Shown one piece after another: positions 1 through 57,900 of a DNA stretch of 64,000 nucleotides. Under the pieces are notes generated by a model, which was not told the DNA's origin, did not search any database, and was given only the letters and a program-made list of their open reading frames with translations. The stretch spans positions 1-64,000 of the forward strand of contig NIVC01003318.1 in assembly GCA_002269645.1 (NCBI GenBank). The letters are read 5' to 3'. The DNA comes from Macrostomum lignano (Eukaryota). How positions within the stretch are numbered: position 1 is the stretch's first letter; every line of letters starts with the position of its first letter. The translations under genes were made by a program, and so were the position numbers.

Positions 1-1604
1 TTTAAAAAGAGATATAACTGATTCTTATTCTCGAACTGATTCTGATTCGCGTTATGTTCAAGCCACCGCAACCGGAACTTTAGATATGGATAACAATCGA
101 ATTATAAATGTTGCAATTACAACGAATAACTCGGTAGTTGATAAGAACTATGTCGATAATCAGGTTGGTAGTCGTAACGGCAATATCAATATGAATAATT
201 TTAAATTAACAAATTTATTATTTGGAACAGAGGCCACAGACTCGTCAATTTAGGGCAGGTCAACGCTCGAGCTAATGTAACCGACGCCGATATTTTTGCC
301 ACGCCGCTTACATCAAATACTTCAAATCCAGATGTTGTTCTTACAGCATCCGAAAATCCAACGATGCTTTTCGAGTTGGAGATGGAAGCCTTGCGACACA
401 ATGGTCACCAAATACCGGAACCACAACCAATATGGAAATTCAATTTGAATTTTTAGGTTATAATCGAAGAATAAATGAATTAAGAATTACAGGCAGCGCA
501 ACTATTGATATTCCATCGGATGGTCGGTTCGTGCAAAAAATGTTGCTACCGATGCATGGACGGTATTACGAACGTCGGGATCACCAATTCAAGCAACTTC
601 ATTTGCGTTAACTAATTTAACGGTTAATTTTTGGAAATATTATAGCGTTTTATTCCCAACTGGTGGCACCGCTACACAACCTATCGAGGTTCGTCTAATA
701 CAATTATTTGAACACCGAGTTGAAATTCAAGATCTTAATTGGCCAAATGAAATACTATCTGCTACCCGCCGCGAGCGTACGTAGATCAGGTAGCAACTCC
801 AACTTCAAATGGTAGAATGTCTGCCGGTGATAAAAATAAATTGGATAATATTCCGCGATTGATGCCGCATTATTCGAGCCAGTAATTTGTAATTGGACTG
901 GATATCAAAATCCAACAACCGCGGAGATATATATCCAGTTGGTTCTTTAATTGGCGACGCTTCTTATATCGATTATCAAAATGGAGCTAGAATTACTCGT
1001 GAAACTGGTGGAGTAAGTGGGGCATTACAATTCAATTTCACACATTTTCAAAATATATCTGCGTCTTTCTATTCCGAGTCGCTAATTCTACAGGAGATGG
1101 TGCAGATGCGGTTTGGTTTTATGCATATTGTCACGAACGCCAACAAGTGAAGGTGGGACTGGATTAACAACCGACGCCGGATTGATAGTTTTTGCAAGTG
1201 AGTGGCATGATAAATTTGGCGTTGTATGGAGTAATAAAAAATCAGACGGATCAAGCCGCGCGGATGTTAATACTGACGCAGATCAAACGGTAGATTATGC
1301 AAATATTGATAACGGCGATTGGCATTTATTTGAAATTAATATTTTAAATCAAAGGGTTTGGTACCGATTACAGTCATACAATGTTGCTGGTGATTCTTTT
1401 ACCCTCATTGGACAGAACGTTTTCACATATGATAGTGGAACTTGGGGAACTTTAGATAAATCTGGAACCCTTATGGGTTTTGGTGCTCGAACTGGAGGAT
1501 CGGATGCTGCACATTTTATTCGTGGCGCAGCCGTTTGTGGTAGCACATCGTTTGGTTATGTTTTTCCTCTACGCTTATTTGAAAAACCACCCGTACAAAT
1601 CTAA
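1..1604 (+). pseudogene. Fiber/spike-like protein, 5'-incomplete, several frameshifts: shaft repeats + discoidin (F5/8C-like) domain + L-type lectin domain
   Basis: Manual translation across frameshifts gives YSRTDSDSRYV, LDMDNNRIINV..VDKNYVD and MNNFKLTNL shaft repeats (~20-270). Then AFRVGDGSLATQWS..IQFEF (~360-480), ATPTSNGRMSAGDKNKLDNI (~790-850), and GADAVWFY plus GFGARTGGSDAAHFI legume-lectin motifs (1095-1520). Confidence 0.65.
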
Positions 1605-1619
1605 ATATTTATATATAAA

Positions 1620-1947
1620 ATGGCTTTTAGTAGAACTCCATCGATGCGGCAAAATAATGTTATTATTCCTATTCCTAAACAAGAATCAAATATAAAAACA
1701 TTCAAATCTCATACCAAATTTTTATTTAGTACTGTAAATGTTCAGGATAATAAGAAGCTTCAAGAATTAATTAAGTTATTAAAAAATCATATTATACTTC
1801 AAGAGTTTTGGAAAATAGGATTTAAATGGGAGAAAAAAGAAAGAATCACTCCAATACAATACCTATTGAGCTCGGGACAAATCCCAAAGAGCGCGGGGAA
1901 TTCATTTTGGTGCTATTAAAAATAGACGAGAATGTCGGTATCTGAAG
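1620..1947 (+). CDS. Hypothetical Polinton protein, probable frameshift near 1855
   Basis: ORF 1620-1919; an alternative frame PIELGTNPKERGEFILVLLKIDENVGI* continues to ~1947. No recognised motif. Confidence 0.4.
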
Positions 1948-2592
1948 CAGATAAATGGGAACGCGATCATTCAACCAACGTAAAGGTCAGATGTTAGTAA
2001 TGTTGATCGAATAAATTATGATTATGATTTATATACTAAAAAAGTAAGAAGAGTTTCAAACCATATAAGAAATATGGATTTTTTCAATATTGGATTTGGA
2101 AGCTTATCAATGTTATGTGTAATCGTTTTAGGTATTTTACAATCTATTCCAACTCTTAATTTATCTCAATTATTTTTAGGTATTTCAATTGGGTCAATAT
2201 CAGGTTTTGAATTGATCAGGAACTTATCAATACTTTTAGCAATTAAATTATATCTTAAAAAAGAAAGGAAAAATATAAATCTTTAAGAGATGTTGCCAAA
2301 ACAATATAAAAATCAATTATATTTATATGTGCAAAAAATATTGGATGACGGAGAGATAACGATTCATGAATTATCAACCGCGGTTGAATTATATGAAAAA
2401 TATTTAAAAGATAGAAATAGAATTTTAGATGTTGAAACTTTTACCGATATGGAATTAAAAGAGTTGAGACTCGATAAACCCAAAGCTCCACCGATAGAAA
2501 CATTAGGTATTTACGAACCTGAAACTATTGCTACTGGGGCACAAAGCCCGCGGTCAGGAAGTGCTGTAGAACTTAGTTGTTTAGTTTTTTAA
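1933..2592 (+). pseudogene. Membrane-associated accessory protein (hydrophobic hairpin, LDDGEIT..EL motif, C-terminal CLVF), split by an in-frame TAA at 2284-2286
   Basis: ORFs 2074-2286 and 2290-2592 are in the same frame, separated by TAA GAG ATG. Upstream coding-like sequence starts at ATG 1933 with one frameshift. Confidence 0.55.
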
Positions 2593-3059
2593 TGCATATG
2601 TTATATATTCTTCCCAAAGTGGTAACTCTCTTCTGATCCTAGGTTTAAATTTTTTATCAATACATAAAAATTCAATGACTTTTTCATAACATTTCGTTAG
2701 GTATGTTACCTATCCTTATAAACTTTGTATTCTCTCGAATAAGAAAATTGAAATAATATCCAACTAAAATTAAAATCCTTTCGAGTCTTTCGAACTTAAT
2801 CCCTTTCCTTTATTTAAATGGAAAAAGTTATTATATAAATAAACATTATTTCCGGGAATTAAAATTGGATCAGAAATGTCTCTTGTAAGATTTCTTAAAA
2901 TTGTGTTTTTAAAATAGTAATATGAGTTTTCAATCTTTTTTGTTTTTTCAAATTGATATATTTTAGAACATGAATAACACATATGATATATATCTCCGTT
3001 TGCTTTTGCCCTCTGTGCATAGTCACATTACATTTATTACAAACATAAATGTCTTTCAT
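2581..3059 (-). pseudogene. Small zinc-ribbon protein (CNKC...CYSC), frameshifted
   Basis: ATG at 3059 gives MKDIYVCNKCNVTMHRGQK; a frameshift joins ORF 2770-2982 (HMCYSCSK); a further frameshift extends it to ~2581. Confidence 0.5.
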
Positions 3060-3085
3060 TTTTTTGTTATTTTTTTAGATTAAAA

Positions 3086-3415
3086 ATGGAGAGCTGGTTC
3101 AAAACCGATTCTAATGTGATTAATTATCTCACACCCAATATGTTGGAGAATAAAGAATATAATATTGTATGTTTGAGACAGGTTAAATTTATTGGGCTTC
3201 AATCAATATTTTTACAATTAGATGGGCAAAAAATTTTATGTCTAAGCGGAGATGATGTTAAAAATTTTCCTGTTTTAGTTATTAATAAACCTAAAGCGTT
3301 TGTTATGAAATACTGCAACGAGGGTGGATTGCAATTTAAACTAAAACAAACAAATAATAAAAAGAGTGATAGGACTGTAAAATTGGCTGTTTGGGAGGAT
3401 GACGACGAAGACTAA
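3086..3415 (+). CDS. Hypothetical 109-aa beta-rich protein with acidic tail (possible ssDNA-binding protein)
   Basis: Intact ORF ending WEDDDED, close to the polymerase gene. Confidence 0.6.
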   Translation: MESWFKTDSNVINYLTPNMLENKEYNIVCLRQVKFIGLQSIFLQLDGQKILCLSGDDVKNFPVLVINKPKAFVMKYCNEGGLQFKLKQTNNKKSDRTVKLAVWEDDDED

Positions 3416-3430
3416 ATTTTTTATAAGAAA

Positions 3431-3715
3431 ATGGATACGATAAAAATCCTTATCACTAAAGAGCGTGAACTTAATGATATTAATAAAAAAATAAATATAA
3501 TTATATCTCAGAAATATCATGAGTATGGGGACGATATGTTTCCCATCCGATATGAGATAGATAAAAGAAAACGTTTTTTAAGACAAGATATTGTTTATGC
3601 TGAAATAGTAATTGAAATTGAAATAGATAGATTGGTTAGAAAAATAAAAAAACTTAGGAAAAAAATAAAGGATAAAGTTACCCTGCCGACTGTGAGGATA
3701 ATTGGTGCTCAATAA
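3431..3715 (+). CDS. Hypothetical 94-aa basic helical protein
   Basis: Intact ORF directly after 3086-3415, same AT-rich composition. Confidence 0.55.
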   Translation: MDTIKILITKERELNDINKKINIIISQKYHEYGDDMFPIRYEIDKRKRFLRQDIVYAEIVIEIEIDRLVRKIKKLRKKIKDKVTLPTVRIIGAQ

Positions 3716-4036
3716 TATATGAAATTGAAGTTAATGATTTGCTCAAACAATTACATGCTTTAGTTTTTTACAGACCCGATAAGTAATTTTTCTGTTAATC
3801 TCTTCCAGTTATTCAAGACTTTTTCCTTATTTAATTTTTTAAGTTCTTTTGGAAATGTTGAATAATAATTATCTATATCTTTTTCATATTCTAGAAATGT
3901 ATTATATTCACAATCACATTCGATTCACAATCACAATCGTAATAATAATTATTTATTGCCGCTTTGTATTCATTATATTTACTTATTATATCTTCTTTTT
4001 GTTTTTTATCTTTTATCATATTTTTTATCTCTTCTT

Positions 4037-7000
4037 TTAAACCAATGGATATGTTTTAATTTTATCATCTAAATATCTTTTATCATCAAATGGACTTAAT
4101 GTTTTTTTATCTGTCTCGATGACAAACATCTGATGCTTATCTGAATTTAATCGATATTGTGGAGCATGATAATTTTCAATTGTATTAAGGTAATCTAAAA
4201 GTACGTTTTTATAATCATCAAATGTTATCTTTTTTACTGCTGCTCTTGATACCCCTTTTATTTTTTTTACCTCTCCCTCCTGTCCTAAAACCTTAAATGC
4301 ATAGCATTTTGATCTTATTGCTATAAACTCGGTTATGATTTTGCTATTTAATTCATCTTTCATTTTAAGTACAACTTTTTTATTTTGATCTGATTTTAAA
4401 GGATGGTTATCCGGATAGTCGAGGTCCAATGTATCCTTAATTTTTTCCATATCTTTATAGACTTCTGGTGTTTCAACCTTAAATACCAAACTGTCGGTGT
4501 CTGCATATATTGGATAGTTATCTGGCCATGTTTTATTTATAACATCATAATAATATTCATACATTACCAGCTTTGCATAATCTAAAACAACCATTCCAAT
4601 AAATATTGGTTTAAGAAATTTTGTTGTTTTATTTCTCATATGAATGCCCATAAAGTTATCATCAAATTTTATAAAGTCTTTAAAGTTAGGTTTTGAGAAA
4701 TATTTCTTTGCTTTATCAATATCCTTTTCTAAATGGAATTGGGTTCTATCTCTAATATTTTCAACCGTTTTTCCATAAAAAGCATTATTCATTAATTTCC
4801 AATAATCTTTCTCAAAATTTGTTTTTGACATCTGTCTCTGATTTGAATTAAAGTCAATATATTTAGCTAACCAATCTTCCTCAATAAACGATATTGTTCG
4901 ATGTACTTTAGACACTTTTAATCCCTGCTTTTCATAAAATTGTAGAAGCTTATAATGCACTACATAGTTTTTCTTATCATGTAAATTTAATATTAATTTT
5001 TTTGTTGCTAGATGTTTTGCATTATCTACTTTAAGATAATCTTTTTGTGTTTGTGATAAATCATCTTCATTAACTGAACAATGCTCTGGAGCTAAAGGAT
5101 ATTTATATGTTTTTGCTTTTGCTTCCCGAGTATATTGCAAATCCACTTCTACGATACAGCCCCTTCCTTCGGGAATATTTTTGTAATAATCGGGGTCATC
5201 TTCCCATTGGAAATCAGCTATTGGTAATTTTTGTTTCATACAACCACCGTATAAATTGTTTGCATCTAGATATAATACATATGATGATTTTTCTTTTTTA
5301 TTATAATTTGGTAGATACTTATTATTTACTTTAGTATATCTATCTCCTAGTACACCCGAGAATCCGCCGCGAATTCCTCTCTCAATCATTAACAACATAT
5401 CATGATCAGTTAGTAAATCAATCTTAACATCTGTATGTTTCAAACCACAAGCCCATGTTAATCCCGGTGCACTGAAACAATATGCGGGATCAATTTTAAA
5501 ATTCTCATATGTATGATTCCTAAAGTTTTCAAATGCATCAGCTAATAGGAGAACATCTGCTTTAAGATATAGATTATGATAATCTTTAAATGTTTTACAA
5601 TTAAAGTATTTCCATACTTTTTGAGCGTGTTCATAATCCGATTCACTTATATTTGTTGTGATAATGTGGAATAAAACTTTTCTATGGGGGTAATTCGGTA
5701 TGAAAAAATACGTCTTCAGATGTTACATATTCATATGGATAGATGCCCTTACGAGTTAATAGCATTAGTTCTTCCTCGGATAGTTTTTCTTTTTGAAACG
5801 ATTCAATAGTATTGGAAAGTTTTTCTTTACTATTTCTAAATCCCATGGTTTTGGAACTAATGATGAAACAACATTTGCTAAAGATGTTGATAAGAATCTC
5901 AAGGAATCTAGAAAAACTAGATGGGAGTATTTCTTACCATATGTTATTGATATGTAATTTTCTGATGTTTTAGGTAATATATTTATTTCATATTCATCCT
6001 TTCCTAAATGAAGCAATTCTCGAACTAAGAAATGAAAATCATATCCGGAACCATTATGAAAAAATACTGGTATTTCCTTACATCCTTTTCCTTCTTTTGC
6101 ATTACATGATCTACATGCTGCCCCTCGATAATTTCCTGTTAGATGACAATGTTCTCGTATCTTATTTTCTTACTTAAATATCTTTTGCACATAAAACAAT
6201 TTGTTGCATTTTTATAATTGTCTCTATCCTTATTTGTCATATTAATATTTTTTGATAATTTATCATATTGATTTTGAATATATTCAAATACATTTACTAA
6301 TGATTCTGCCATGTGCTTAGCTGCATCATTACCGTGGTAAGTAATCATCCTTGATTTAAATATATGATCAGCTACGGAGTGTACATATATACAATAACTA
6401 TTCGGAAACTGTTGTGCCAATTTTTTTGTGCATTCACCGTCATCAGATACCGTCTGTGATTCTTTTAAGGGAACATTTGTTGCTTCAAAATCAGCATATA
6501 TTACTATTGGTTTTTTAACTGCCATATAATGTTGTTGGAACATTAGGGTTGCATCTTCAGATGCTGGCATTATAGCATTAGTAAATTTGTGATCTAAACA
6601 AAATCGTTGGTGGTTTTTAAGAGCTGTTTCATCCTTTTTAAATGTAAAACAATTTCTACATAGTGGATATCTATTTCTATTTTCTCTTAAAAAAGAACTA
6701 ATATCTTTTATGTATATATAATGTGTTTCATTTTCGCGCTGCATGTACAAAAGATCGATTTGATCTGGTGCTGTTATATCAGTTGCTGGCTTAACAAGAT
6801 AACACCTTTTCTTATACCATTCTGGATCGGTTAAAATTTCTTCTAGATCTTTTGGTTCTTCAATTGTAAACACATTAATATTTAAACCATTCATTTTTTC
6901 AATCTTATATATATCATCTATTGCTACTGGGTATGATATGTTTTTCATTATTATTTCATCCTCATATTGTCTATAATTATATATTTTATTAATGTGTGAT

Positions 7001-7686
7001 TCTACTTGATTGTGATATTTATGAATTAATAAACACCATAATAAACATTTATTATCTTTATTGTCTGGATTTATAATCATAGGTGATTTAAATTTGAGCT
7101 TCATATGTGATCGTCCTTTAAGAATTTCTATAGGTGCAATCTTTACTATTGCTGAATTACAGGATACAAATATAAACCCAGATCCGTTTTCTGTCATCTT
7201 ATCTATCCATTCATCAAACTCAGCTTCTATTTGATCGAATTGATTGTTGTAATTTCCCATTGATAATAATGTTTTATATGATTCTTGTGAAAAGTTATTT
7301 ATTACTTCAATTTCTGAATTTGCATTAAGAATATTTGGTTTTTTAAATTCTGTTTCAACTTCTATTTTATACTTAATTGGCTGTCGTTTGTTATTTGGCC
7401 TTATAGTATAATTGTTTAATATGGTCTTTAATTTATCTTTCATTTGTTTAAAATATTCTTTATAATTTGTATTTATATCTATATCTATATATATTACTTC
7501 AGCTCCATTTTGTCCTTGTGGTTGGGGGTTATTAATATCATTTAATTGTCTTTCTAAACGTATCTCATTTTCTGCCCTAATTCTTGCTTCTATTTCAGCC
7601 CTATCGGCAATTCGTTGTGCATCGATTTGAGCTATTAATTGCGCTCTAAGTTCAGGGTTGTCGATTTGAGCTAAAATTGCTTCCAT
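4037..7686 (-). CDS. polB: Protein-primed family B DNA polymerase (pPolB) with zinc finger and endonuclease-VII-like insertion, interrupted by 3-4 frameshifts
   Basis: Motifs YADFEA (Exo I), EHCHLTGNYRGAACRSCN (EndoVII-like, across a frameshift near 6165), FHNGSGYDFHF (Exo II), RKGIYPYEY, YLKADVLLLAD, YLDANNLYG, KLMNNAFYGK, YADTDS. The pieces 6139-7686, 5765-6016 and 4037-5443 join into one gene. Confidence 0.95.
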
Positions 7687-7769
7687 TTTATAGAATAAAA
7701 TTTATATAATGTTTGAATTATTGATTTTTTAATTTTGTGTTTTTGGTGTCCAGACCCTCCCCCAGGAGC

Positions 7770-8756
7770 CTATTCGAGATCTGCTTTTGGTAATAGCAAT
7801 CCATTGCCCATAACGTTTGAATTTAAGAAAATTCCTGAACCTGCTTTTGGTCTCATTTCGAGATATAATCCGCTTCCGTCGTGTTTTTCAATGATATTAA
7901 AATCTTTTCCTAATTTATTAAAAATTTTCTGAACAGCTGGTCTAAAATTGGATCCAATATTGTCAAAAAATCCTTTAGCTTTCTCACCCGTTTTTTCTAA
8001 AGTTTGACCAAATTCATGTAGTTTATCTGCGACAACTCCACTTCCTTGGGTTGTTCCTTTTAGTACCAAACCATTCCCGTGATTTGTTCCTTGCAAGAGT
8101 AAACCTTTTCCGGCTGCTAACCTAGCTTCTGCATTTCTTTTTTGCTCTGCTGTTGCTGAACTACTATTAATGGTATCAATAAGTTTCTGTTTGAATTGTG
8201 CGTCCTGCGTTATTTGCTGTCTTTGAAATTCGGCCTCTCTTTTAGCTTTTTCGTCCGCAGCTTTTTTGTCATTTACTGCTTTTGCAATTCCAGCTGCTCC
8301 GCCAGCAACTCCTCCAGCTGCTCCAATTCCTGCAAAAATTATTGGGAGCAAAGCTGCAAGGGGCAAGATTCCCCCCTGTTTCGCTCTTAACTCTCCTAGC
8401 TGTTTTACATTATCATGAATTCTTTTTCCGGCTAAACCGACTGCTCCAGCTGCACCAAGTCCTAAAAGAAGCGGTAGAATGGGTAGTAATCCGCCGTCCT
8501 TTTTAGTGTGAGTCTCCATTAAAAATTTCACATCGGAGTCTGTCAACCTATAATTTCTGCCGCGATTCTTAAAGGATATTGGCCTTCCTTCTTGTGCATA
8601 TTTTGCTGCGAGTTTAAATGTATCGATGTCGTAGTCAAACTTTTTACCTAATCGATCCAATCTTTTTAACATTGTGTGGCTATGTTTATTATCATCTAGA
8701 TCTAAAGTATCTACAATTTCTCCTATAAAATATAAGCGGTCGTTATCTGTGTCCAT
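7770..8756 (-). CDS. Adenovirus pX-like core/membrane-active precursor with two GG|hydrophobic segments and GxG-L-x-L repeats
   Basis: KDGG-LLPILPLLLGLGAAG and KQGG-ILPLAALLPIIFAGIGAAGG resemble the adenovirus pX C-terminus (GGFLPxLIPxIAAAIGA). GKGLLL, GNGLVL, GSGLYL, GSGIFL and GNGLLL repeats follow. Confidence 0.75.
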   Translation of the reverse strand: MDTDNDRLYFIGEIVDTLDLDDNKHSHTMLKRLDRLGKKFDYDIDTFKLAAKYAQEGRPISFKNRGRNYRLTDSDVKFLMETHTKKDGGLLPILPLLLGLGAAGAVGLAGKRIHDNVKQLGELRAKQGGILPLAALLPIIFAGIGAAGGVAGGAAGIAKAVNDKKAADEKAKREAEFQRQQITQDAQFKQKLIDTINSSSATAEQKRNAEARLAAGKGLLLQGTNHGNGLVLKGTTQGSGVVADKLHEFGQTLEKTGEKAKGFFDNIGSNFRPAVQKIFNKLGKDFNIIEKHDGSGLYLEMRPKAGSGIFLNSNVMGNGLLLPKADLE

Positions 8757-8766
8757 TTTTATATTG

Positions 8767-9165
8767 TTAAAATTTCTTTAATCCTTTTCCACCTTTAATA
8801 GTATTTAACATTTTATTAAAATCCTGAATATCTTTATTACTTATTGGTGCGCTTTTCGTGGGGGTTTCTGTTGGTTGTGCGGCTTGTGCCAGCTTTAAAT
8901 CTTTTATTGCATTTATTTGTGAGAGGGTGTCGTTAAAATCTCTCAATTTCTTTAGTTCTTCTGCCGCTCTAGCTGCTTCAATTCCTCCTTTTACAGCATT
9001 TGTTATAGAGCCTGCTGCAGAGCCAGCTTGCCCTATAAGCCCCATATTGTCTTTAACAAAATTTGCTGCTGTTCCAACCACATCAAAAAGCCCCTCACCT
9101 CGGTATTCAACTGGGTCTCCTACCTGCAATTCATTCAGATTTTGCATATGTGTAACGTGTGTCAT
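8767..9165 (-). CDS. pVI-like amphipathic-helix precursor (GEG-LFDVVGTAANFVKDN; C-terminal GGKGLKKF)
   Basis: Intact ORF (track 8767-9207; the likelier start is ATG 9165 because the upstream ATG lies in an inverted repeat). Amphipathic helix follows a GxG motif. Confidence 0.65.
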   Translation of the reverse strand: MTHVTHMQNLNELQVGDPVEYRGEGLFDVVGTAANFVKDNMGLIGQAGSAAGSITNAVKGGIEAARAAEELKKLRDFNDTLSQINAIKDLKLAQAAQPTETPTKSAPISNKDIQDFNKMLNTIKGGKGLKKF

Positions 9166-9204
9166 TTTTTGTTCTATTTTTAGTAACAGAAAAAAGATTG
9201 TCTG

Positions 9205-9302
9205 CATTCCATTTAGACCAGATTTTAGACCAAATTTTTGAAAACGAAAACCAAAACGATAGTCTAGTTTTGTTTGGTCTAAAATCTGGTCTAAATGGAA
9301 TG
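9205..9302. repeat. Perfect 30-bp inverted repeat with 38-bp spacer
   Basis: CATTCCATTTAGACCAGATTTTAGACCAAA (9205-9234) and its exact reverse complement (9273-9302). Confidence 0.95.
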
Positions 9303-9387
9303 TTGGGTGGGTAGGTGAGCTGACTATAAATAGCTTCTATTCTTTCCGACCCTTCGCGCCTGCGGCGCGGGCAAGGGGTTATAGAGT

Positions 9388-9655
9388 AGTAGTATAGAAA
9401 AAGACGCTTCTAGATCAGACCTTATTTTAATGGCCGTTTGTAAGGTCTTAAGAGGGGGGACGCGAGGGGGGTGTTAGGGAGTGTTTGGAAGTGTTGGGAA
9501 GTGATTTTTATTGTTAGGGGTGATTATGGGTGATTAGATGTGTTAAGGGTGTTTAGATGTGTTTTTTTATTTACCCCCCGTGTCCCCCCTCTAGACCCTT
9601 AAAACGGTCATTAAAAAAGTGCTCTGGGTCTAGAAGCGTCTTTTTCTATACTACT
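9388..9655. repeat. Terminal module bounded by ~90-bp inverted repeats that begin with the Polinton terminus AGTAGTATAGAAAAAGACGCTTCTAGA
   Basis: 9388-9414 is the exact reverse complement of 9629-9655 (27 bp). Pairing continues imperfectly for about 60 bp more. The spacer is G/T-rich. Confidence 0.9.
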
Positions 9656-10021
9656 AGCGCTAGTGTATTCAGTACACCCCTGTGCGCCAAATAGCACTGC
9701 GCCTCAGTGCAGCCTTGCCAAGTCTCCAAATTTCATCAGCACGTCGACCTGATAGCTGAGGGTGTCTGGCAGTTGAGGCTTGCCTACTGTCGAGGCTTGA
9801 TCGGCGAAACTAGAGAAATTCGCATCAAGGTGTTCATAGTCACCTGGTGCCACCTGTTGAAGGTCTAGAAGCTCCGTCTCGGTGAAGGCCAGTAACCAAC
9901 GAAGTCAGAGCTGATGCAGACACATTTGGTCGACGTGCTGATGAAATTTGGAGACTTGGCAAGGCTGCACTGAGGCGCAGTGCTATTTGGCGCACAGGGG
10001 TGTACTGAATACACTAGCGCT
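9656..10021. repeat. Perfect 94-bp inverted repeat (9656-9749 / 9928-10021) with 178-bp spacer, abutting the Polinton end
   Basis: Arms match exactly by eye; both outer ends are the palindrome AGCGCT. Confidence 0.95.
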
Positions 10022-13000
10022 TATGGGAAAAATCCGACCTTCTGGCAGAATCGTCGAATATCTCGACGGTCCGAAGGGCTGGCGACTTGATTCTTGTTTG
10101 AGAAGGTGCGCAACAAAAAGTTAGCCCGTGTTCTTGAATTTCGTGTGCCTGCGTTGCCCCGTTCCGGCGCAGCAAAAAAAAATTGTCAGGGGGGGGGAAA
10201 TTTTTCCCCCCTCTTGGTAGTTCGACGGGCGGAAAAATGGCTTGGTATTCCTACTGTTAATGACTCGTTCCTAATGCTTACAATATAAAGTGGTATTCAA
10301 GGACTACTTAAGTAGAAGGATGGGAAACTACATTTCTTGGAAAAGTTTAGTAGTCATATGGTTTTATAATGGATCACACATGCGTTTTAAACTTTGAAAA
10401 GTTATCGGCCCCGGGCCGATATTACGAAACAGCTAGCAGTTAGCAGTTAGCAGCAGCTAGTTTAGCCGTGCTATTTAGACGCGTCTGAAAAAGTGGTTTC
10501 ACAACACCATGCTAAAAAGCAACGGCTAGTAAGCCGTGGCTAACGTGGCTAAAAGCATGCTAGCGTGGGTCTCTGCCATAGACATGAGGCGTCACTAAGA
10601 CGATTATTGATTTGTGCCTGCGAGCGACTCGAAAAAAAGTCACGGCAGGAAGTTATGAAGATAGAGGAAATTCATTGACTAACCAGGGTTGAGGCTGGCT
10701 GAAAAACAGCTGCTAGTTTAGCCTTGCTAGTCGACGTCTGCTAGCTTCGTGAAATCAACTCTCCCACCCTCGGCACCCGATCTTACCTGCTAGCCATAGA
10801 CAGCTAGACGCTGCTACTTAGCAGTCACTTTGAGAAACCCAGCCACTGCTTTTAGCAGTTAGCAGTGGCTAAATAGCTGTTAGCAGTGTTTCGTGAAATC
10901 GGTTCCAGAATTAGCTGGGGTAATTGAGGGTGTGTGGGCGATCTCCCTCCCCAGTCCTTACGTCGTAGACTGATCAGCTGTATGCAGCCTTCAGATAAGG
11001 CGCGCAATAGCTGCGGCTAAGCTGTCGGTTGCACATCTGGCCCAACACAGGTGTAAAGTACTATTATTACTATTATTACTATTATTGTTATCGTTACTAT
11101 TATAATATTATTATTTTTTGTGGCAAAAATAAGGCACTGGTCAACAGTTCGAGGACTGCTCACAAGGCTGTAGCCTATGTTGTATTTTGATTTCGAATTA
11201 GAACTCGTTGCTCCATCGCAAGAAATGCTAAATCTAGTGCTGAGCGCCTCACCACGAGTAGGAAAAGCCTGCACTATAAGATTTGAAATATCCGGAACTG
11301 TATTGACTTTAATGGAGACTAACTTGTAGCCGTAGTTAAGAGTGTCTGCGTTTCTGTAGCATTTCACTCTTAGAATGTAGAACCCCGCCGCTGGAGGCAA
11401 ACAGTTCTCTCCGTCAATGGCGAGTCCTGGCGAGTTTGTACCTACAATAGTATGGTTGGTACAAGTTCACCTTCAACAAATTCCAAACCATTTAGACGAT
11501 TAATTTTTTCTATTCACTGGCTATCGTGAGGCTTTTAATTTTGACAAGCTGTAATCGACGTTAGTTAGTGCATGACTGGTGGCATGCCCTGAGTGAACTG
11601 GACTAGAACCGACGTTAGCTGCGCCTGTTCGGTGGGATAATTGTTATCCCTTGCCACAACATACATACGAGCTAACTTAGATTAATCAAATCGAATCCTG
11701 GCGTATAGCGTTGATGCTAACCTTCTTAACAGTTTTGTTGGCCACATTTAGCGAAGTGTAGCTTCGAATAGTGTGACCGGAGCTGACGTTGACGCAGGTG
11801 CCAGAGCTGAGACTCCAGAGACTTCCGATTGGGCATGCAGTGGCCCGACTGTTACCAGTGCAGCTGGATTCCAATTGAATGCAAGAGTTTGTTAAGTAGC
11901 AGTACACTGCACCTCCTATGCAATGTGGCGTGAGTTAAAGCAGCTGAAATGCGCATTGTGGGTTGTAAATTTTAGTGCTTTACCAGATTGGCTGAGCTGT
12001 TGATTTTCTACACATAATTTTCAGTCTAGAGCAACACAGTACTCTAATATTAAAAAACTGCTTCCTGTGAAAATGACAAAACTGCTTCATGAGAGTTGAC
12101 CTCCAAGTCTAAGGATGTAGAGACATGATTTAGAGTAAGGGTTTTAAAGCAAACGTTTACAATGAGGGTCTGTTCGTGTGGCTAATTATTGCTGATATTG
12201 TTGAAGGCTCAGATATTTAAAGACTATTCCCGGATTTAACGGGAAAGAGCTATGTCAGTGTGCAGTGTGCATATGGAACGTGCGGTGCGGATAAATCAAC
12301 ACTTAACTGAATCGGAATAAGTTGAAAAAGCAGCCGATCTGGAAGGAATGCAGTCCTAAATTCTTGCACTGTTAGTTGTATTTGTAATTACATGTAGGGC
12401 TCGTGCTATTTGAGATAGGAATTTGTTGAGACAACTATAAACATTTTTACTGTAAATTTGCTCAAAGGGGATTAAGCAAGCAGCGAATATTTTTTATCTA
12501 AATTAACCCTTTTTTACGATTGCTTTGGAAATAATACAGCTAGAATTAATAGGAGTCTGGGTTTAGGACTTTCTTGGCTTACTTCTCTGTCAGTCGAGTT
12601 CGCAGTCAGAGATTTGCGTGTCTATAATTGGCTTTCAACGCTAGAGACCCGTTCTAAATTAGCATACAGAACAGTATAATACACTATATACCTCGTACAT
12701 GTACGAACGTAGATCAAGCTCAAGTGAGAATTAGCAGCTTCCACTTTAGCACCATCAAATGTACGAGCAAGAGGTCGTACTAAGCTTAAAATACGAAGCA
12801 TTCAAAACTTGCTGTTAGTGAAAAAAATTTACCCTCATAACATTTGCTTACCGAAACTTCGAAGCTCTTATTTGCAAACGTGTGAAAGTGGAGCTGCGTA
12901 ATCGTTAATTTCGGATATCTGAATTCGAACTCATTCATAACGAGGATCGAATTGTTTGATCCCGTGATGATGCGTCTTCTCAGACCTGTTTCGGCACCTT

Positions 13001-20247: not shown

Positions 20248-21621
20248 ATGAATGAGAAAGAAATGACCAAGCCCAGCTTCCTTACAGGAGCGATGAAGCC
20301 CACTGACTGGCTACTACCAATTGCGTTAGTCTGGCTAGTGCGGTTTTCCACTGCGCTTACAGACACAGCGATCAACTTTACAATTCCATTCGAGACCTCA
20401 ACAGCTCCGCCAAAGGACAGCATTTGCATCTGCAGTATCAATGTGTCTCAAGGTCGTCGCTGCCTGGACTGCCGACAATATCAACTCGACTCACCGGACC
20501 TTGTGTTTCTGAGCTCTCGCAACATCTTGCTGAGGGCTCCGGTATGCAGTGGAGTCACCAGCATTAGAGCTGAACAGCCGGTGCGAATTCATCAGCTCCG
20601 CCCAGGTCGCCTGTTGCAGATGACGGGCCTGATCAGCATCCGGTTGCGCCAAGTTGACTTGAGATTCAGCTTTCATCCGGACGCATTGAGAGGGCTCAAG
20701 AATCTTACTGACCTGGAGATAATTGGGCCGCACAGCCTTGACAGGCTGGAGGCGCACAGTTTTCAGCACACTCCCAGACTTAGGCGATTGGTGCTCAGAG
20801 ACAACGGCATTAAGTACATCGATCGCTTTGCTTTCTGTGAGGCGGAGAATTTAGAGTACTTGGACCTGAGCAGGAATCGAATAGTTGCGTATTCGTGCGA
20901 CTGGTTCCCGGGCCTGTCTGCTCTGAAGTTTCTTAACGTCACTCTGCTCACTGGCACAGAGGTATTTGCTAGCGTGGGGACTAAGCCACCAAGTTGCCTG
21001 TTCTGCCCGTTGACGGGTCTGGCAATATTGTCTTTTAATGATATAAACTACGCCGGACCAAGCATTCAGCTGCTGAGGCATGCAATTATTAAGCACTACC
21101 GCTTGCAGTTGCTTGAGCCGCTGTTGTACAATGTTACTGGCTTGCGAGATCCTCAAACTTGCGGAGGCCTCGACGGAGAAGCGGCCATCGCCTGGCAGCA
21201 GTGCCAAAGATGGCGTGACGGCAAACCTGTGGTGGCCCAGTACGTGACTATGGGGCCGAGCACAGCTGCCGTTAGCAGCACCGCTAGCCCAGCAGAGGAA
21301 GTCTCCGACTCGAACGGTGTGATTCAAAGCCCGAACGAATACTTCAACAACAGCTCATCTCGACAAATTCCTGACACGAGTTCCGGCGATGGGCTTCAAG
21401 TGTTTTTAAGCAGTCAATTGTTTCTCGTGGTGCTTGTCGTGTGCATCGTCCTTGTGGCCTTGTCGCTGATCATCTGCTGCATAGCCTGCTGCTTTGCCCG
21501 ATCGCGCAGACACCGCGGCGCTCGCTACAGTGTCAAAGCTGCCAACGAAGCCGCCGCTGCCGCCGCTGCCGCCGCTGCAGCTGGCAACGGGAAAGCCGCA
21601 AATGGTAGAGCAAATGCTTGA
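20248..21621 (+). CDS. Intronless type I membrane protein with leucine-rich repeats
   Basis: Signal peptide (MKPTDWLLPIALVWLV), Cys N-cap, LxxLxLxxNxI repeats (LRRLVLRDNGI, LEYLDLSRNRI), TM helix LFLVVLVVCIVLVALSLIICCIAC, short poly-Ala tail. Confidence 0.9.
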   Translation: MNEKEMTKPSFLTGAMKPTDWLLPIALVWLVRFSTALTDTAINFTIPFETSTAPPKDSICICSINVSQGRRCLDCRQYQLDSPDLVFLSSRNILLRAPVCSGVTSIRAEQPVRIHQLRPGRLLQMTGLISIRLRQVDLRFSFHPDALRGLKNLTDLEIIGPHSLDRLEAHSFQHTPRLRRLVLRDNGIKYIDRFAFCEAENLEYLDLSRNRIVAYSCDWFPGLSALKFLNVTLLTGTEVFASVGTKPPSCLFCPLTGLAILSFNDINYAGPSIQLLRHAIIKHYRLQLLEPLLYNVTGLRDPQTCGGLDGEAAIAWQQCQRWRDGKPVVAQYVTMGPSTAAVSSTASPAEEVSDSNGVIQSPNEYFNNSSSRQIPDTSSGDGLQVFLSSQLFLVVLVVCIVLVALSLIICCIACCFARSRRHRGARYSVKAANEAAAAAAAAAAAGNGKAANGRANA

Positions 21622-28764: not shown

Positions 28765-30462
28765 TTACACTGCATTCTCGCTATTCGCCGGAGCACCAGC
28801 TGGACCGCCGTCCCCGCTCCCGGCTGGACCCCGATGCCTGACGGTCGAGGCCGCAGACTGCAGGCTAGTCCCGCTGCCGTAGACGCTAGTTGGCAGGCGA
28901 GCTTTGACCAGACCGCACGTCAGCGCTCGAACAAATCGCGCCCTGAACAGCTTATTTTCCAAACAAGAATTATCCAGTTGATTGACTGGTTAAACAGAAG
29001 CATGATTTGACCAACATCGCCAAGGTTAAGCACCGTGCGCAGCATGTTCTGGTCGGTGGTTGGGGAGAACACGGTCAGCTGCAGCACAATGTACTGGGCT
29101 ATGCAGGGCGGCATGCCCGACAGAAAGTAGACCAAGGACAGGAACAAGACTACTATTGACGGCCCTATCTCGTCGGATTCTTTATCTTTCTCTCCGCTGT
29201 TGGCCATGCTTTTTCGGTTGCGCAATATTTTTAACACTTTGCGCAACAGAAACAGGTTGACAATGCTGATGGCCAGCAGTTGCACCATCGGAGGTATCAT
29301 GAACAGGGCATTGCGAATTATCGTCCAGATGCGTACACCTTGGCCGAAAAATGGAACTGCCAGACAGGCAATCTTGTTGTCAAGGATGTACCAGCCGGTG
29401 AAGACAGGGACCGGAGCCACTAATATTAGCGATATCAGCAGCACTACTAGTAAGGCCTTCCAGGCGGAACGGTTTGTTAAAGTTCGAAATCTGAAGTCAA
29501 AATTAGACGGTTACTGCACACAGGCCTCTATAGAGATTAGGACAAACGAAATGCTTTGCAAGTCAAAGTGTTTTAGGGAAGCTTGTACATTAATCACTAC
29601 AGTACTTGATGCACGATAGTACACGCAGACGTAGAACTATTCATATAAGTCAATAAAAAACTTAACTATGCAACTTACATTAGAGGCTGTTGGTATATAT
29701 TTATTATTTCATCGACTTAAATATTTTCAAGGGTGCATTGCCAATACGAGGGTCGACCCACAGCTAGTTAGGGGCTATGTTAAGTACACACACACACACA
29801 GGTCGAATGCATATTCAGGTTAATTTAAGCTCGTTATAGTAATTGCATACACTCTGTGTCTCTATGACTGGCCCCTGACGAGTTGACTATTTCGGCAGGT
29901 GCCTGATAAATCCTAATTTAATGTGGCAGCTCTCTTACTTGAACGGATAATGGAGGGTGAGCACACGGTCCAGTGTCATCAGCAAGAACCAGTTCGCCGA
30001 CAGTACGTGGAAGAAGTTGTGCACAAAACGAAACAATCGGCAGGCGAGATCAGACACGTTGACCATGAAGAAACCGACAGTACCGCGGCTGATCCAGGGC
30101 AGGCCTTTGGCAACTATCTGCCAGCCCAGGCCCCAAGAGATGAGATTGCCACTATCTGACACAGCAATCAGTGCCAGGTAAAGATTCTGGCGACATTTAA
30201 GCCTCTGCTCGGACAGCATCACATAAGTTGTCAGCGTGTTGCCAATAACGCCAAAGAAGACAATAACGGGCACAAAGAAGATGCCCAGAGCGCCGAGAAC
30301 AGTGGCGCCGATGCAGAACGGTCGCTTGGTTGGGTCGCCGCTGCGACAGTCGCGAAGCAGATCGTCCAGAGCGTCGAGATAGCCGATGGTGGCAGTGTCT
30401 TGAAGAGAATCGTTCGCCGACATTTTCGATGCTGGAATGAGATGAAGCTCTGCAGGCTCCAT
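28765..30462 (-). CDS. Orphan class A GPCR (paralog 2); intron 29491-29938, frameshift near 28960
   Basis: Exon 1 30462-29939 (GVIGNTLT, VSDSGNL, TLDRVL) splices AA|A to exon 2 (FKFRTLTNRSAWK). Helix 8 continues in another frame (NKLFRARF). Highly similar to paralog 1. Confidence 0.85.
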
Positions 30463-33586: not shown

Positions 33587-34661
33587 TCAGCCACTGGTTG
33601 ATGACCTACTAGACTTGAAGGCCGTGAATTTGATCACTCGCAAGTAAGATGCTCGGAACTCAGCATTTAATAGACCATAAACTATGGCGTTCATGCTGCT
33701 ATTGAAAAATGACATCCACACCGAGTACTTGTGAAACATATTGGACAGGTGGATATCCATCTTTTCAGTGATCACTTGAACCAAATACGGCACCCAGCAG
33801 GCGTTAAACACCAGGAAAGCCGCCATGATCGTAAAAATGGCCCTCCTCTCGTCCCTGCTCAATGTTGTGTCGGCCGATTCACCCAAGTTAGCCTTGATCC
33901 GATAGAGTTTCCAGAAAATTGCTCCGTAAGCAAAGCAGGAAATGCACAGCGGCAGAAACACTCCGAATACAGCCAGCATGAAGGTAGCAGAGAACACATA
34001 CTTCTCGTCGTAGTTGAAGCACGCGAAGGCATCGGCAAGGTAGGTAAAGTTATCCGTAGCTCCTTCTACGCCACTGTAGATAAACCAAATCACCCAAATC
34101 AGTAAAGTTATTAGCAGCGTCGATCGTCCCGTGAAAATTCTGTCATAAAGGTGACGCTTGATAACGAAGCAATATCTGAAAGGGAGATTTTTTGGAGTTT
34201 AGAAAGTCTACAGAGATAAAAGAATATTTTTGAAACAAATTTTCATCTAACCTATTCAGAGCAATCGCACAGAAGTTGCTGTTCGATATGCCAGTGCAAG
34301 CGAATGATACGAAAGCATTAAATATGCATTGCGCATCAGTGAATATGTTCTTATTAGAGATGCGAGCAGAGAGCACACACGGCAGGACATATCCGCTAAC
34401 GAGCAGGTCGGCAGAGGCAATGCTCAGTATAAAATAGTATTGCGGCTTCTGCATTCGTTTTGTTGTCAGAATGCTAATGATCAGCAGCAGGTTTCCAATA
34501 ACGCCAATAGCGATAAAGATCGATAAAACTACGCAGTCGGCAATCTTGTCAGCTAAGACGTCCGGCATTGGACAGGCGAACTCATCTCTGCTGTGCTCGT
34601 CCTCCTCCTCAATGCAGTCCCTTGGCGCCACCGTAGTGGAGGTTTCGTTGTCAGCCTCCAT
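33587..34661 (-). CDS. Melatonin-receptor-like class A GPCR, copy A (intron 34176-34251)
   Basis: Spliced TM3 motif ALNR|Y (NRY) and TM7 NSSMNAIVYGLLNAEFR (NAxxY); both are diagnostic of the melatonin receptor family. Confidence 0.85.
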
Positions 34662-46927: not shown

Positions 46928-47635
46928 AACTTTAAAGTTCAGTATGTGACACTGTTTATTTATCTTTAAGTACAGAAAAATCGAGCAACGTTGTTCTTCT
47001 AGTAGAGCCATTGGTCACTGAACAAGAACTAACCATTAGCAAGCAGCTCAATGCCTATTTGACTGCTTACTGTCCTTAATCCCTTTGCTGAAGCAGTATT
47101 TTAAATTGTACTTTTTTATATTGGTTTAATAAATTCTGTTAGAATAAAAAATTAGGCAATTCTTCCCTCACATTTTGTTCTAAAAGTATAAATTTGCTTC
47201 CATATTTTACAGATAACTTACGGGCACTTTCCAAAAACTAAAAAATGACATTACCTTCTTTAAAAAAATCGTAACCTATTTTTTAACCCGTAAAAATCGT
47301 TGTGCCTATCCATGAAATAGTTGATTTTGCATCGATTTAAAACCTACATCTATTATCGATTTTATTCAACCTACGACGCAATTTCCTATTCAGTTTAATG
47401 CCATTCCTTTAAATAAAACAATTCGAGGGTCGAATATTTTGGCAAAAATAGTTTTACAGTGAGTTCAAACGCTTTAATTTCCAACGTCCAATCAAAAGCG
47501 ACGAGACAGACATGGCGCAATAGGCTTCGTACCGAGGCTATTATGTGGGTATCTGTATTTATAAGAGTTGCCAGCAGCATCTCAAGAGCGCACTCCAAGT
47601 TAGGCGGAAAATTGAAGGAAAGGAATTTCTTAGAA

Positions 47636-48847
47636 ATGTCACTGAAAGTCGCGAACGACTCTGAGTCGGAATCGTCCGTTTGCGAGGCCTATTGTCAGGC
47701 GAATACAATTTTGTGGAGCGTTCTGCTTCCGCCACTCTTAGCCGTTGGCCTGATAGGCAACTTGCTCATTGTGCTTGTGTTCAGTACTAGTACCAAACGA
47801 CGGCGAAGGAAGCCGGTCCTCTGCATCACCATGGTGACGCTGGCCTGCGCCGATCTGCTCGTGTTCCTGTTCCCCATCACGCGGCACTGGCTGAGACACG
47901 CCAAGCTCTACATCAGCTTTGACGTGCAAACTTTGGGCACAGGTGTCTGCAAGACGCACGAGTTTCTCGTCTACTTCTCGTTGATGTTCAGCATCTGGAT
48001 GGTGGTGCTGGTGTCCGGAGAGAGATTCACCATCATCTGTTTCCCCTTGCGTCGATCGCGACTCCTGACGCCGCGTCGAATCGTCGCTGTGATTGTTGCT
48101 ATCATAACTGTCTCTGCACTGCTCAATGTGCATTTCTTTTGGACTCGCGAATTCGTCTGGAACCACCAACTGAACCGAATGAGCTGTCAGAATGCGCGTT
48201 CGGGTCTGGACGCGTTCATTTCTAAATCGGTTCACCCCTTCGTAGACATGACCTTCACCGCTGGGCTGCCCCTCCTGCTATTGGTCATCTTCACTGGGGC
48301 GATCGCGCACAGACTTTACCAAAGAAGTCGCCAGCTTAAAACTCTGACAGCCGGGCTCAGCAACTGCTCGCCAGCTGGACGGCAGCATCGCCTGCTCACG
48401 CCAACCACGCGAATGGTGCTGCCTGTGCCGCTGTTGTTCATCCCGCTGGCGATGCCCGTGAAGTTCTGGCTAGTTGTGCACCACGGCAAGGGCATTCCGG
48501 GCTCCGTCCAGCCGGGCACGCCCGAGTACCACAGTGTCCGGCTGGGCTGGTCCGGCCTTCTGTTCCTGCAGTTCTGCAACTTCGCCTGCAACTTCTTTAT
48601 TTACAGTCTGATGTCCGCCGACTTTCGCGCCGACTTGGCCAGACTTTTGTGCGGCCGGTGCCGTCGCCGGGTCTGGTGTCGCCGGGGTGAGCAGTCGGCC
48701 TCGACCAGATCGGCGCCGCCAACCGCAGCCGCAGCAGTAGACGCCGCCGATGTCGTTGTGAACGACAGGAAGATGGTGCTAGCAAGCAACTTTGATGACG
48801 CGAGCTCGGTCTACCAGATGCAGCTCCGGTCTTGCAGACGATGTTAA
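47636..48847 (+). CDS. Intronless class A peptide-receptor-like GPCR (FMRFamide-receptor-like)
   Basis: GLIGNLL, LACADLL, SGERFTIICFP, NFACNFFIYSLMSADFR; seven hydrophobic segments. ORF track start is 47459; ATG 47636 is the likelier start. Confidence 0.9.
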   Translation: MSLKVANDSESESSVCEAYCQANTILWSVLLPPLLAVGLIGNLLIVLVFSTSTKRRRRKPVLCITMVTLACADLLVFLFPITRHWLRHAKLYISFDVQTLGTGVCKTHEFLVYFSLMFSIWMVVLVSGERFTIICFPLRRSRLLTPRRIVAVIVAIITVSALLNVHFFWTREFVWNHQLNRMSCQNARSGLDAFISKSVHPFVDMTFTAGLPLLLLVIFTGAIAHRLYQRSRQLKTLTAGLSNCSPAGRQHRLLTPTTRMVLPVPLLFIPLAMPVKFWLVVHHGKGIPGSVQPGTPEYHSVRLGWSGLLFLQFCNFACNFFIYSLMSADFRADLARLLCGRCRRRVWCRRGEQSASTRSAPPTAAAAVDAADVVVNDRKMVLASNFDDASSVYQMQLRSCRRC

Positions 48848-54900: not shown

Positions 54901-57900
54901 TTTTACAAATTTGCCGCCCATTCATAACGTGTCACTGCGAGGCAGAGCTCGCACAGCTGTGAGAAATGCTTGGATGAAATTGAAGCTTTTTTCCTCTCCT
55001 ACTGACCTGTTTTTGAGTCGGATTTCATCTTGGATTTCTTTTCTCTATCTAGATTTGAATTTTCAACAATTAAAAAATGATATCGAGAATTTCAACTAGA
55101 GGCCTTGATATTCGTTGAAAGACCCGATGAGAGACCCGATGATGGATCCCATGATGGACCCGATGATGGAACCAATGAGAGACCCGATGAGAGATCCCAT
55201 GATGGACCCGATGATGGAACCAATGAGAGACCCGATGAGAGATCCCATGATGGACCCGATGATAGAACCAATGAGAGACCCGATGAGAGATCCCATGATG
55301 GACCCGATGATGGAACCAATGAGAGACCCGATGAGAGATCCCATGATGGACCCGATGATGGAACCAATGAGAGACCCGATGAGAGACCCGATGATGGATC
55401 CCATGATGGACCCGATGATGGAACCAATGAGAGACCCGATGAGAGATCCCATGATGGACCCGATGATGGAACCAATGAGAGACCCGATGAGAGATCCCAT
55501 GATGGACCCGATGATGGAACCAATGAGAGACCCGATGAGAGACCGATGAGAGACCCGATGAGAGACCGATGAGAGACCCGATGAGAGACCCGGTGAGAGA
55601 CCCGATGAGAGACCCGATGAGAGACCGATGAGAGACCGATGAGAGAACCGATGAGAGACCGATGAGAGACCCGATGAGAGACCCGATGAGAGACCGATGA
55701 GAGACCGATGAGAGAACCGATGAGAGACCCGATGAGAGACCGATGAGAGACCCGATGAGGGACCCGATGAGAGAACCGATGAGAGACCCGATGAGAGACC
55801 CGATGAGAGACCCGATGAGAGACCGATGAGAGACCCGATGAGAGACCCGATGAGAGACCCGATGAGAGAACCGATGATGCACCCGATGATGGACCCTTGG
55901 GAAATGGACCCGATTACGAGTATGGACCCGATGAGAGACCCGATGACAGACCCGATGAGGGAAATGATGACAGACCCCAGAAAAATACTAAAAGCCAGCA
56001 ATTGGCCTATATACATGAATGGGTTTGGGTCATCGTTATATAAAATTTGTCGGATAAATTTCCACAGTCAATAGAAGGATATTTAGCTCGTAATAAATTT
56101 GTTGCCTTTTCTTGGGTGCTTTTCACTATCTATTCATTCATTCTTCGACTTTTTTACGTATCTATAACAATTTGAAAGTTTTTTTGGACACGAGAAAACT
56201 GTACAAAACTTTAACAGACGTCAATTGACAGGGATGATGAGGTATCTGAATCAAATTTGAATTATCTTGCAGTATAAAAATTAATAACTCTGTTAACTCT
56301 ACATACTAAGGTGTAACTATATTCGATGTGCTTCTCTTAATGTACTGTTGTGAAAACTGTCAATCAACCTTCAAATTTTAATTACTGTGCTTCAACTCTA
56401 AGAAAACGTACAACCTACAGGCAAATGCACAGAAAGAACTTTACTTTAACTATTTTACTTGTTAATTGAAGGTTAAATATTTGGTTCATCATTAAAACAA
56501 AAACTTCACACTCAACAGCGTACGAGACAGGCTGAGGCATCGACCAATGCAAAACTGGTATAAAGTCAATTTACAATTTTATGCTATGTCTACCTGTAAG
56601 CTTTTGTTGTAGTTGTTTGGACGTTTTTTGTTATACCGCGATGACCTTTTGTGACGATCAACTAAAATGTAACCGGCTTTTGACTGGCTCTGCTGCAATG
56701 TATTGATACTAAAATAACTAAATTGATTCTTTATTTAGCCCATCCTAACTATTTGAATCCGTGAGCAGAACAAGGTCCAATGTTCAGCAGTTGAAAAAAA
56801 TACAAGCAATACAAAATACAGTCCAGTTTAGACCTAAAATACCGTTTTATAAAGTTTTTGTTGTTGTTTGTATGATTAACAATTATTGTTGCTTACGAAT
56901 CCCTTGAGTTGTAAACTTTAATGCGTTCGACTTGTGCCCCCGCTTTGCTGATAGGCAAAGTACTTGCAGTTTATCACATATTTTTAATTCTATAGTTTTT
57001 TGTTCACGCAGTCGCTTTGTACAATGTTGAACTGCTGCTTTTTAAAGCTTACAAAGCCTACTCTCCTTACCTTGTCGTTTTAGAAGAATGAAGACGAGTC
57101 GGAGAGTCTTGCGTTGAAGCCGCAGGTAAGCTGAGTCGATGTCTTCTGTTTTGGTTGAACCCGATTTCACTGCTTGATGTCTTTTGTTTCCTCAAAAGTC
57201 GATACGATGCACTTATAATCCATCGTTAATTGACTTGATCTGAACGTGAATTATATTCTTTACCGATTTTCCTTTAAAGTTTTTCCTAGATGTTACTTTA
57301 TGTAATAGCTGTCGTTAATTTACTGATATACAGGCATATGGCAGAGAGACACTAAGATAATAAAGCAGAGCGACCGACAGACTTAAAGACACACAGACAG
57401 ACAGACACTTTAAGATAATAAGACAGAGAGACCGACAGATCCAAACCTAAGACGAGGGCCGTAGTACAGTGGTCCAGCGCGGCGCTCTGGTGTGCCAGCA
57501 GCCCAGGTTCGATTCCAAGTGCAGTCACATTAATTTGAGGCTAAATTGGAATCTTGGCTTGGCTCTTCTCGTGCAATTAACAGCCTTGAGAGCCAACCCC
57601 CCAAGGCACAGTGAGGTGTACATGCCTAACGATTAATCAAGTTAGGGCCGCTGTACACTCCTGTGTGAGTGTGTGCCTGTGCGTATGACTGCGTACGTAT
57701 CCGCGCGCTTGTGTGCCTGCTCAGGGGAGTCGGCAGAATGGGCAGCAATGCCTCTCGCCGGTTATGTGACAATGTCGCTTAAAGTGCACCTGAGTGCACA
57801 CAGCCCCTGTCTCTAATCGAAAAGATTCAAAGACAGACAGACAGACATAAGACACGTAGACAGAAAGACAAGACCGATAGATACAATATATGTGAATGGA

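Follow-up and report, generated by a model that had tools for sequence, protein, structure and literature searches.

A family-wide fold-back module in the terminal inverted repeats of a Macrostomum lignano Polinton

Both ends of a Polinton/Maverick family in Macrostomum lignano carry, within the terminal inverted repeat (TIR), an inverted copy of the element's own tip, and this fold-back module is real, family-wide and evolutionarily maintained. We characterized it in a window of 64,000 nucleotides (C3318:1-64000, contig NIVC01003318.1); the contig begins inside a Polinton, so that the left end of this copy lies outside the window. As read from the sequences, the module has a fixed place in the TIR, the element integrates at its outer tip, neither flipped nor free copies were found, and the two arms co-vary and bear conversion tracts. 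On balance, we lean towards the interpretation that the module is a terminal stem-loop of the TIR at both ends, with arms that change together, which would fold on single-stranded replication intermediates and supply a local duplex end and a repair template without the far end. The features of the window's copy are:

1 to 9655, no strand: right part of the integrated Polinton/Maverick, matching the two-ended copy C4439 at 97% over 9744 bp
4037 to 7686, minus strand: gene for the protein-primed DNA polymerase (pPolB), split over at least three frames here, with polymerase motifs in 4037-5722
9205 to 9302, no strand: 98-bp hairpin outside the TIR, a 30-bp perfect inverted repeat around a 38-bp spacer
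9348 to 9655, no strand: TIR of 308 bp, the same at both family ends (313-bp inverted match between the ends of C4439)
9350 to 9377, no strand: GC hairpin at the inner TIR border, with a core at 9355-9369 that extends in the predicted fold, common to both end types
9385 to 9387, plus strand: an additional AGT unit adjoining the inner arm on its inner side, retained with 79 of the 80 exact inner arms
9388 to 9469, plus strand: inner inverted arm of 82 bp, co-evolving with the outer arm and with a patch of its own at arm positions 28-45
9470 to 9573, plus strand: loop of 104 nt, predicted to be mostly unpaired, C-free on the strand ending at the tip
9574 to 9655, minus strand: outer arm of 82 bp, beginning at the AGTAGT tip, with 9629-9655 perfectly paired with the inner arm
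9656 to 9661, plus strand: probable 6-bp target duplication, inferred, as the left end is not assembled

The window's copy belongs to a multi-copy family of about 17.6 kb, and C4439 carries the TIR at both ends of 17.6 kb. In gene content, TIR and target duplication, the sequences describe an ordinary Polinton. The window copy encodes a protein-primed PolB, with profile matches to PF03175 (E 4.6e-7) and PF02945 on 5765-6169, and the sister copy C870 encodes a retroviral-type integrase (PF00665, E 6.5e-7, 30 bits, just below the 32.6 cut-off). PHROG transposase matches were also found in the sister copy, together with a packaging ATPase (Pox_A32, E 4.8e-7) and a weak match to a maturation protease (Peptidase_C5, E 0.1). 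A 491-aa protein is a capsid-like candidate: its features match viral clusters at 0.97-0.98 with a low recognition score, and some of these clusters hold capsid families on 10-24% of their members; a PDB search with this protein gave no match. Among viral contigs we found one distant polymerase match, without a visible end, and nothing matching the capsid candidate. The family has (AGT)2 TIR ends and 6-bp target duplications, which are found at the outer tip of 9 of the 11 paired ends, or in 9 of 13 two-ended copies when C4439 and C2221, which have none, are included; their absence from these two copies is probably due to collapse or recombination. The window's copy is probably inserted in a very high-copy palindromic host repeat (9656-10226). 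We dropped the idea of a MITE of 354 bp, bearing its own duplication, at 9662-10015, because that stretch belongs to the larger high-copy palindromic repeat. A matching flank stands at an end of the opposite type at C2221:16827, a candidate for the missing left end; the C2221 TIR is not among the 12 closest. Host frames in the window (20248-21621, 29935-30462, 34143-34661, 47543-48847 and 55096-56016) encode a leucine-rich-repeat protein, three rhodopsin-family receptor pieces and a glycine-rich repeat protein.

To place the inner border of the TIR, we compared 30 fetched loci: 12 continue into the window's end, 2 do likewise after a different short segment, 14 match 9348-9655 only and then diverge, and 2 carry an insert in the stretch. 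The 14 loci that match 9348-9655 only define a TIR of 308 bp. Several TIRs of the window's kind (type A) are followed by other internal sequences (L013, L016, L024, L026, L030, L045, L077 and L108), which suggests accessory cassettes or derivatives at these ends. The module, 9388-9655, makes up most of the TIR and is not a separate element. The preliminary description, made from the sequence alone, was right that the feature exists and assigned it to this one end; it is instead a fixed part of the TIR, present at both ends. Several of its observations hold as made: 9388-9414 and the terminal 27 bp (9629-9655) are exact reverse complements of each other, pairing continues imperfectly beyond (83.5% over 9387-9469 versus 9574-9656), a GC hairpin lies just inside, no duplication flanks the module, and the spacer, said to be nearly free of C, has none at all on the plus strand (47 T, 37 G, 20 A, 0 C over 9470-9573). 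The length of the loop varies between lineages while its orientation is constant (module length 247-308), and in 83 of 83 ends it is always the same one of the two strands that is nearly free of G. The canonical G-quadruplex pattern is absent from the loop.

A local mini panhandle had been suggested for this end, and the predicted fold agrees with it: the 308-nt end has z = -14.8 on the plus strand and -13.6 on the minus strand, none of 100 shuffles folds as well, and the predicted mean pairing probability of the last 27 bases is 0.98. Misassembly and a one-off error are ruled out by collinear copies and by contigs of independent runs. At least 40 collinear matches are 98-100% identical (all 40 scored, out of 212 candidates), and short-read contigs of four runs (at most 3 samples, from 3 studies) cover every bin of the region; in two runs a contig runs over 9380-9469 without a difference, and among the pieces listed none spans the whole stretch. 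The inner copy is present family-wide, and the earlier view of an evolved structure rather than a fresh error is borne out by these copies and by arms that co-vary across 18 lineages.

For the comparison of arms we extracted 86 ends and used 83, with L048, L056 and L103 dropped as truncated; the TIR identity of these ends to the window goes down to 69%. The 83 ends are non-independent: some elements contribute both of their ends, some contigs are probably allelic, and one place is represented twice. We therefore grouped the ends into lineages by the loop alone, which gave 18 at 90% and 11 at 85%, and drew a single TIR from each. Across the 18 lineages, the distance at arm positions 7-27 was 0.096 to the end's own inner arm versus 0.249 to other inner arms. 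The permutation test reached its floor (p=0.0002) in 20 of 20 draws, and the result holds with 11 lineages; L028 and L083 were out of register in this test, a bias that runs against co-variation. Co-variation is weaker at positions 46-80 (0.14 versus 0.19), and at positions 28-45 the outer arms are nearer to other outer arms (0.18) than to their own inner arm (0.26). A mismatch patch, an inner-specific hexamer, is found in 79 of 83 inner arms and in none of the 83 outer arms. Alternative states common to both arms occur at positions 8-10, 12-16, 19-21, 23 and 24, so that changes preserve pairs, a pattern that does not by itself separate selection from conversion. Conversion tracts are directly visible: in L034 and L035 the two arms are identical up to position ~54, as they are in L049 apart from a 1-nt gap, and tracts run from position 5 to 80 in L113 and over ~70 bp in C925. 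In a young lineage of 53 ends, position 10 is G/G in 30, T/G in 17, T/T in 4, G/T in 1 and misregistered in 1, and position 23 is C/C in 44, C/A in 7 and A/A in 2. These states fit occasional copying in both directions and not a rebuilding in every cycle. That the tip has to be rebuilt from the inner arm was likewise rejected, since the arms are identical over positions 1-27 in only 39 of 83 ends.

The fold-back recurs with other terminal sequences. Type-B ends (C3469, C506, C925; L153-L160, L179-L181) belong to elements with the same body as type A (proteins 87-99% identical), a different polymerase, which has no match to that of type A, and a different TIR tip. The terminal sequence of type B is not related to that of type A, yet it too folds back, over ~250 nt, and the GC hairpin that follows is the same. 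The last ~9 nt of a type-B end are unpaired, the stem begins ~10 nt inside, and arm positions ~10-34 are kept; permutation tests on these ends were inflated by register shifts, and we do not rely on them. Polymerase replacement has been described for nematode Polintons (PMC10748475), and C2322 seems to join a type-A end with the polymerase of type B. In a second family, C2232 (polymerase 52% identical, 591-bp TIR, 6-bp duplication), the module measures 100 nt, and 23 of the 26 ends that could be read (30 fetched) have a perfect terminal stem of 25 bp, in which positions 15 and 23 show paired changes. The preliminary description had also proposed two potential origins 268 bp apart. This is weakened, as none of the 27 readable type-B ends (of 30 fetched) has AGTAGT in the inner arm, nor does the inner arm of L113. 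Because the fold is conserved and the second AGTAGT is not, we favour a structural role over a second origin.

We propose that strand displacement by the protein-primed polymerase would expose a single strand, and that the exposed end could snap back locally, holding the tip in duplex. This duplex end may serve initiation, and may also template the repair of a shortened 3' end. Copying on the fold-back, either of the nascent strand on its own 5' arm or of a trimmed 3' end on the inner arm, would homogenise the arms, and selection would keep the structure.

The main rival to this proposal is neutral template switching: the module would be an old snap-back duplication of the tip, kept alike by the polymerase and without any role. 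We consider this unlikely, though it deserves serious weight. Template switching homogenises inverted arms without selection (PMC8604942), and co-variation alone is therefore no proof of use. Also in line with this rival, the spacer of the neighbouring 98-bp hairpin at 9205-9302 is a real micro-inversion, in the same orientation in 21 and inverted in 6 of 27 copies (1 deleted copy dropped). This hairpin lies in an optional segment of ~152 bp (9196-9347) upstream of the first gene, for which skip joints occur in contigs and which has a TATA-like word at ~9326-9333. Moreover, the fold-back is dispensable for Polintons in general, as in five other Polintons of the same genome (C114, C393, C754, C173 and C566) we found no inner tip copy above shuffled controls; in the C2285 stretch no TIR pair was found, and C2466 was left out of this comparison. 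The 8-mer atop the GC hairpin (9358-9365) recurs near the ends of the otherwise unrelated C114, C393, C173 and C2466, an observation made without a chance control, and is possibly a shared protein-binding word. Integration, too, is independent of the fold-back: C1500:203854-219354 (L223, L224) is a 15.5-kb near-perfect palindrome with arms of ~7.4 kb, a 977-aa orphan frame and no recognisable Polinton genes, and it integrated, with a 6-bp duplication, having only the outer 125 bp of the Polinton at both ends. We regard it as a candidate snap-back parasite of the window's family. Against a neutral by-product stand the recurrence of the fold-back with three unrelated terminal sequences, the mismatch patch, which conversion is able to erase and which nonetheless persists in 79 of 83 ends, and a loop that is inverted in 0 of 83 ends although template switching inverts spacers too.

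Alternatively, the inner arm could be a second, inverted binding site for a protein (polymerase/terminal protein or integrase) in double-stranded DNA, with folding incidental. Subterminal binding repeats are common in DNA transposons, and the retention of arm positions ~10-34 in type B, where the tip is not kept, could be that of a binding site. We nevertheless find this quite improbable: there are 19 different outer 27-mers while most full-length pPolB matches are 96-99% identical, and the pairing reaches 80 bp and includes nested stems around a loop predicted to be unpaired.

Very doubtful, in our view, is the idea that the repeat extrudes as a hairpin or cruciform while integrated, its base coinciding with the virus-host junction, and thereby shows where the element is to be cut free. 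It would suit a stem that begins at base 1 in type A and in the C2232 family, and a type-A pPolB that carries an endonuclease VII-like domain (PF02945, E 1.9e-7). However, a similar motif is present in the polymerases of C114, C393 and C754, all without a fold-back, and was not found in type-B frames, the type-B stem begins ~10 nt inside, and no excision product was seen. A link between this domain and the fold-back was accordingly rejected, as the two do not correlate across Polintons. The domain lies within the polymerase at L213:1882-5634 and at 5765-6169 of the window. HNH and VSR domains in Polinton polymerases have been described (PMC10748475), and our literature search found no paper combining an endonuclease VII-like domain with a Polinton polymerase.

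To the autonomous options raised in the preliminary description, a 268-bp mini-replicon or copy-back satellite and a parvovirus-like flip/flop end, we give almost no credence despite AGTAGT at both module ends in type A: in integrated, assembled DNA, all 80 exact matches to the inner-arm pattern stand in TIR context, none as a free-standing module with its own duplication; 79 of these keep the inner flank (the sole exception, C22:11415, still has the inner arm between GC hairpin and outer arm); all 83 loops have the same orientation, while flips are detectable in this material, as the neighbouring hairpin shows in 6 of 27 copies; and no strand-change joint is listed in the contigs of four runs, which drop rare forms. 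For assembled copies, a nested non-autonomous insertion, a free module and a flipped module are thus ruled out.

A bolder reading, which we hold to be rather unlikely, is that this is an animal Polinton lineage whose self-folding ends act as the trigger of the life cycle: a hairpin based at the virus-host junction would form in a gap of a few hundred bases, free or present the end, and prime replication locally. The standard model of Polinton replication has the two far ends anneal (PMC4046053; bioRxiv 10.64898/2026.07.28.741278), and the 17-kb single-stranded loop of that model would be unneeded if this reading were true. The ends described here also amount to a set of mutants made by nature, in which one fold is built from three unrelated end sequences, changes come in pairs, conversion has left tracts and some relatives lack the fold; with it, the question of how Polintons start replication and maintain their ends becomes testable at small scale.

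Among known systems, parvovirus terminal hairpins have an imperfect stem with a fixed mismatch patch and undergo flip/flop. The terminal stem of the window's family likewise is imperfect with a fixed patch; unlike in parvoviruses, 0 of 83 ends are flipped, and no Rep/HUH gene is present among the frames scanned. Animal Polintons (PMC8097293) share the (AGT)2 end motif, 6-bp duplications, a length of ~17 kb and the core genes, and the 308-bp TIR falls in their reported range of 46-1447 bp; in the text available of that paper, the word hairpin does not occur and no inner inverted tip copy is described. In the titles and abstract openings listed by our literature searches on Polintons and protein-primed ends, we found no wide-loop inverted tip copy in pPolB Polintons. 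Terminal palindromes have been reported in endogenous virophages and PLV subtype 4 of Halocafeteria seosinensis (bioRxiv 10.64898/2026.07.28.741278), where a fold-back also occupies the extreme end of the TIR, next to the duplication, and a replication role of the hairpin is proposed. As far as the preprint's available text goes, those palindromes are tight (52 nt in subtype 5; screen gaps of at most 10) and occur mostly in elements without pPolB, whereas the ends in the window's genome have pPolB, loops of 50-140 nt, imperfect stems and measured co-variation. With a 104-nt loop and a pPolB, the window's element falls outside the near-gapless, pPolB-free type. Palindrome screens limited to short gaps, as in that preprint, would miss such ends, which may therefore be commoner than recorded. 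Internal palindromes are also known in some casposon TIRs (PMC4046053). A precedent for the repair proposed here is Streptomyces, in which truncated telomeres are repaired on a fold-back (PMC5449611); there, too, the linear ends are protein-primed and the folded 3' strand templates the lost terminal bases. The Streptomyces system is bacterial, with an internal origin, end patching by Tap/Tpg and several short palindromes, and we do not claim homology. In the panhandle origin of adenovirus and PRD1 (PMC4046053), a single strand similarly regains a duplex end through pairing of inverted repeats; there the two ends of the genome pair with each other, whereas in the window's Polinton each end could pair locally.
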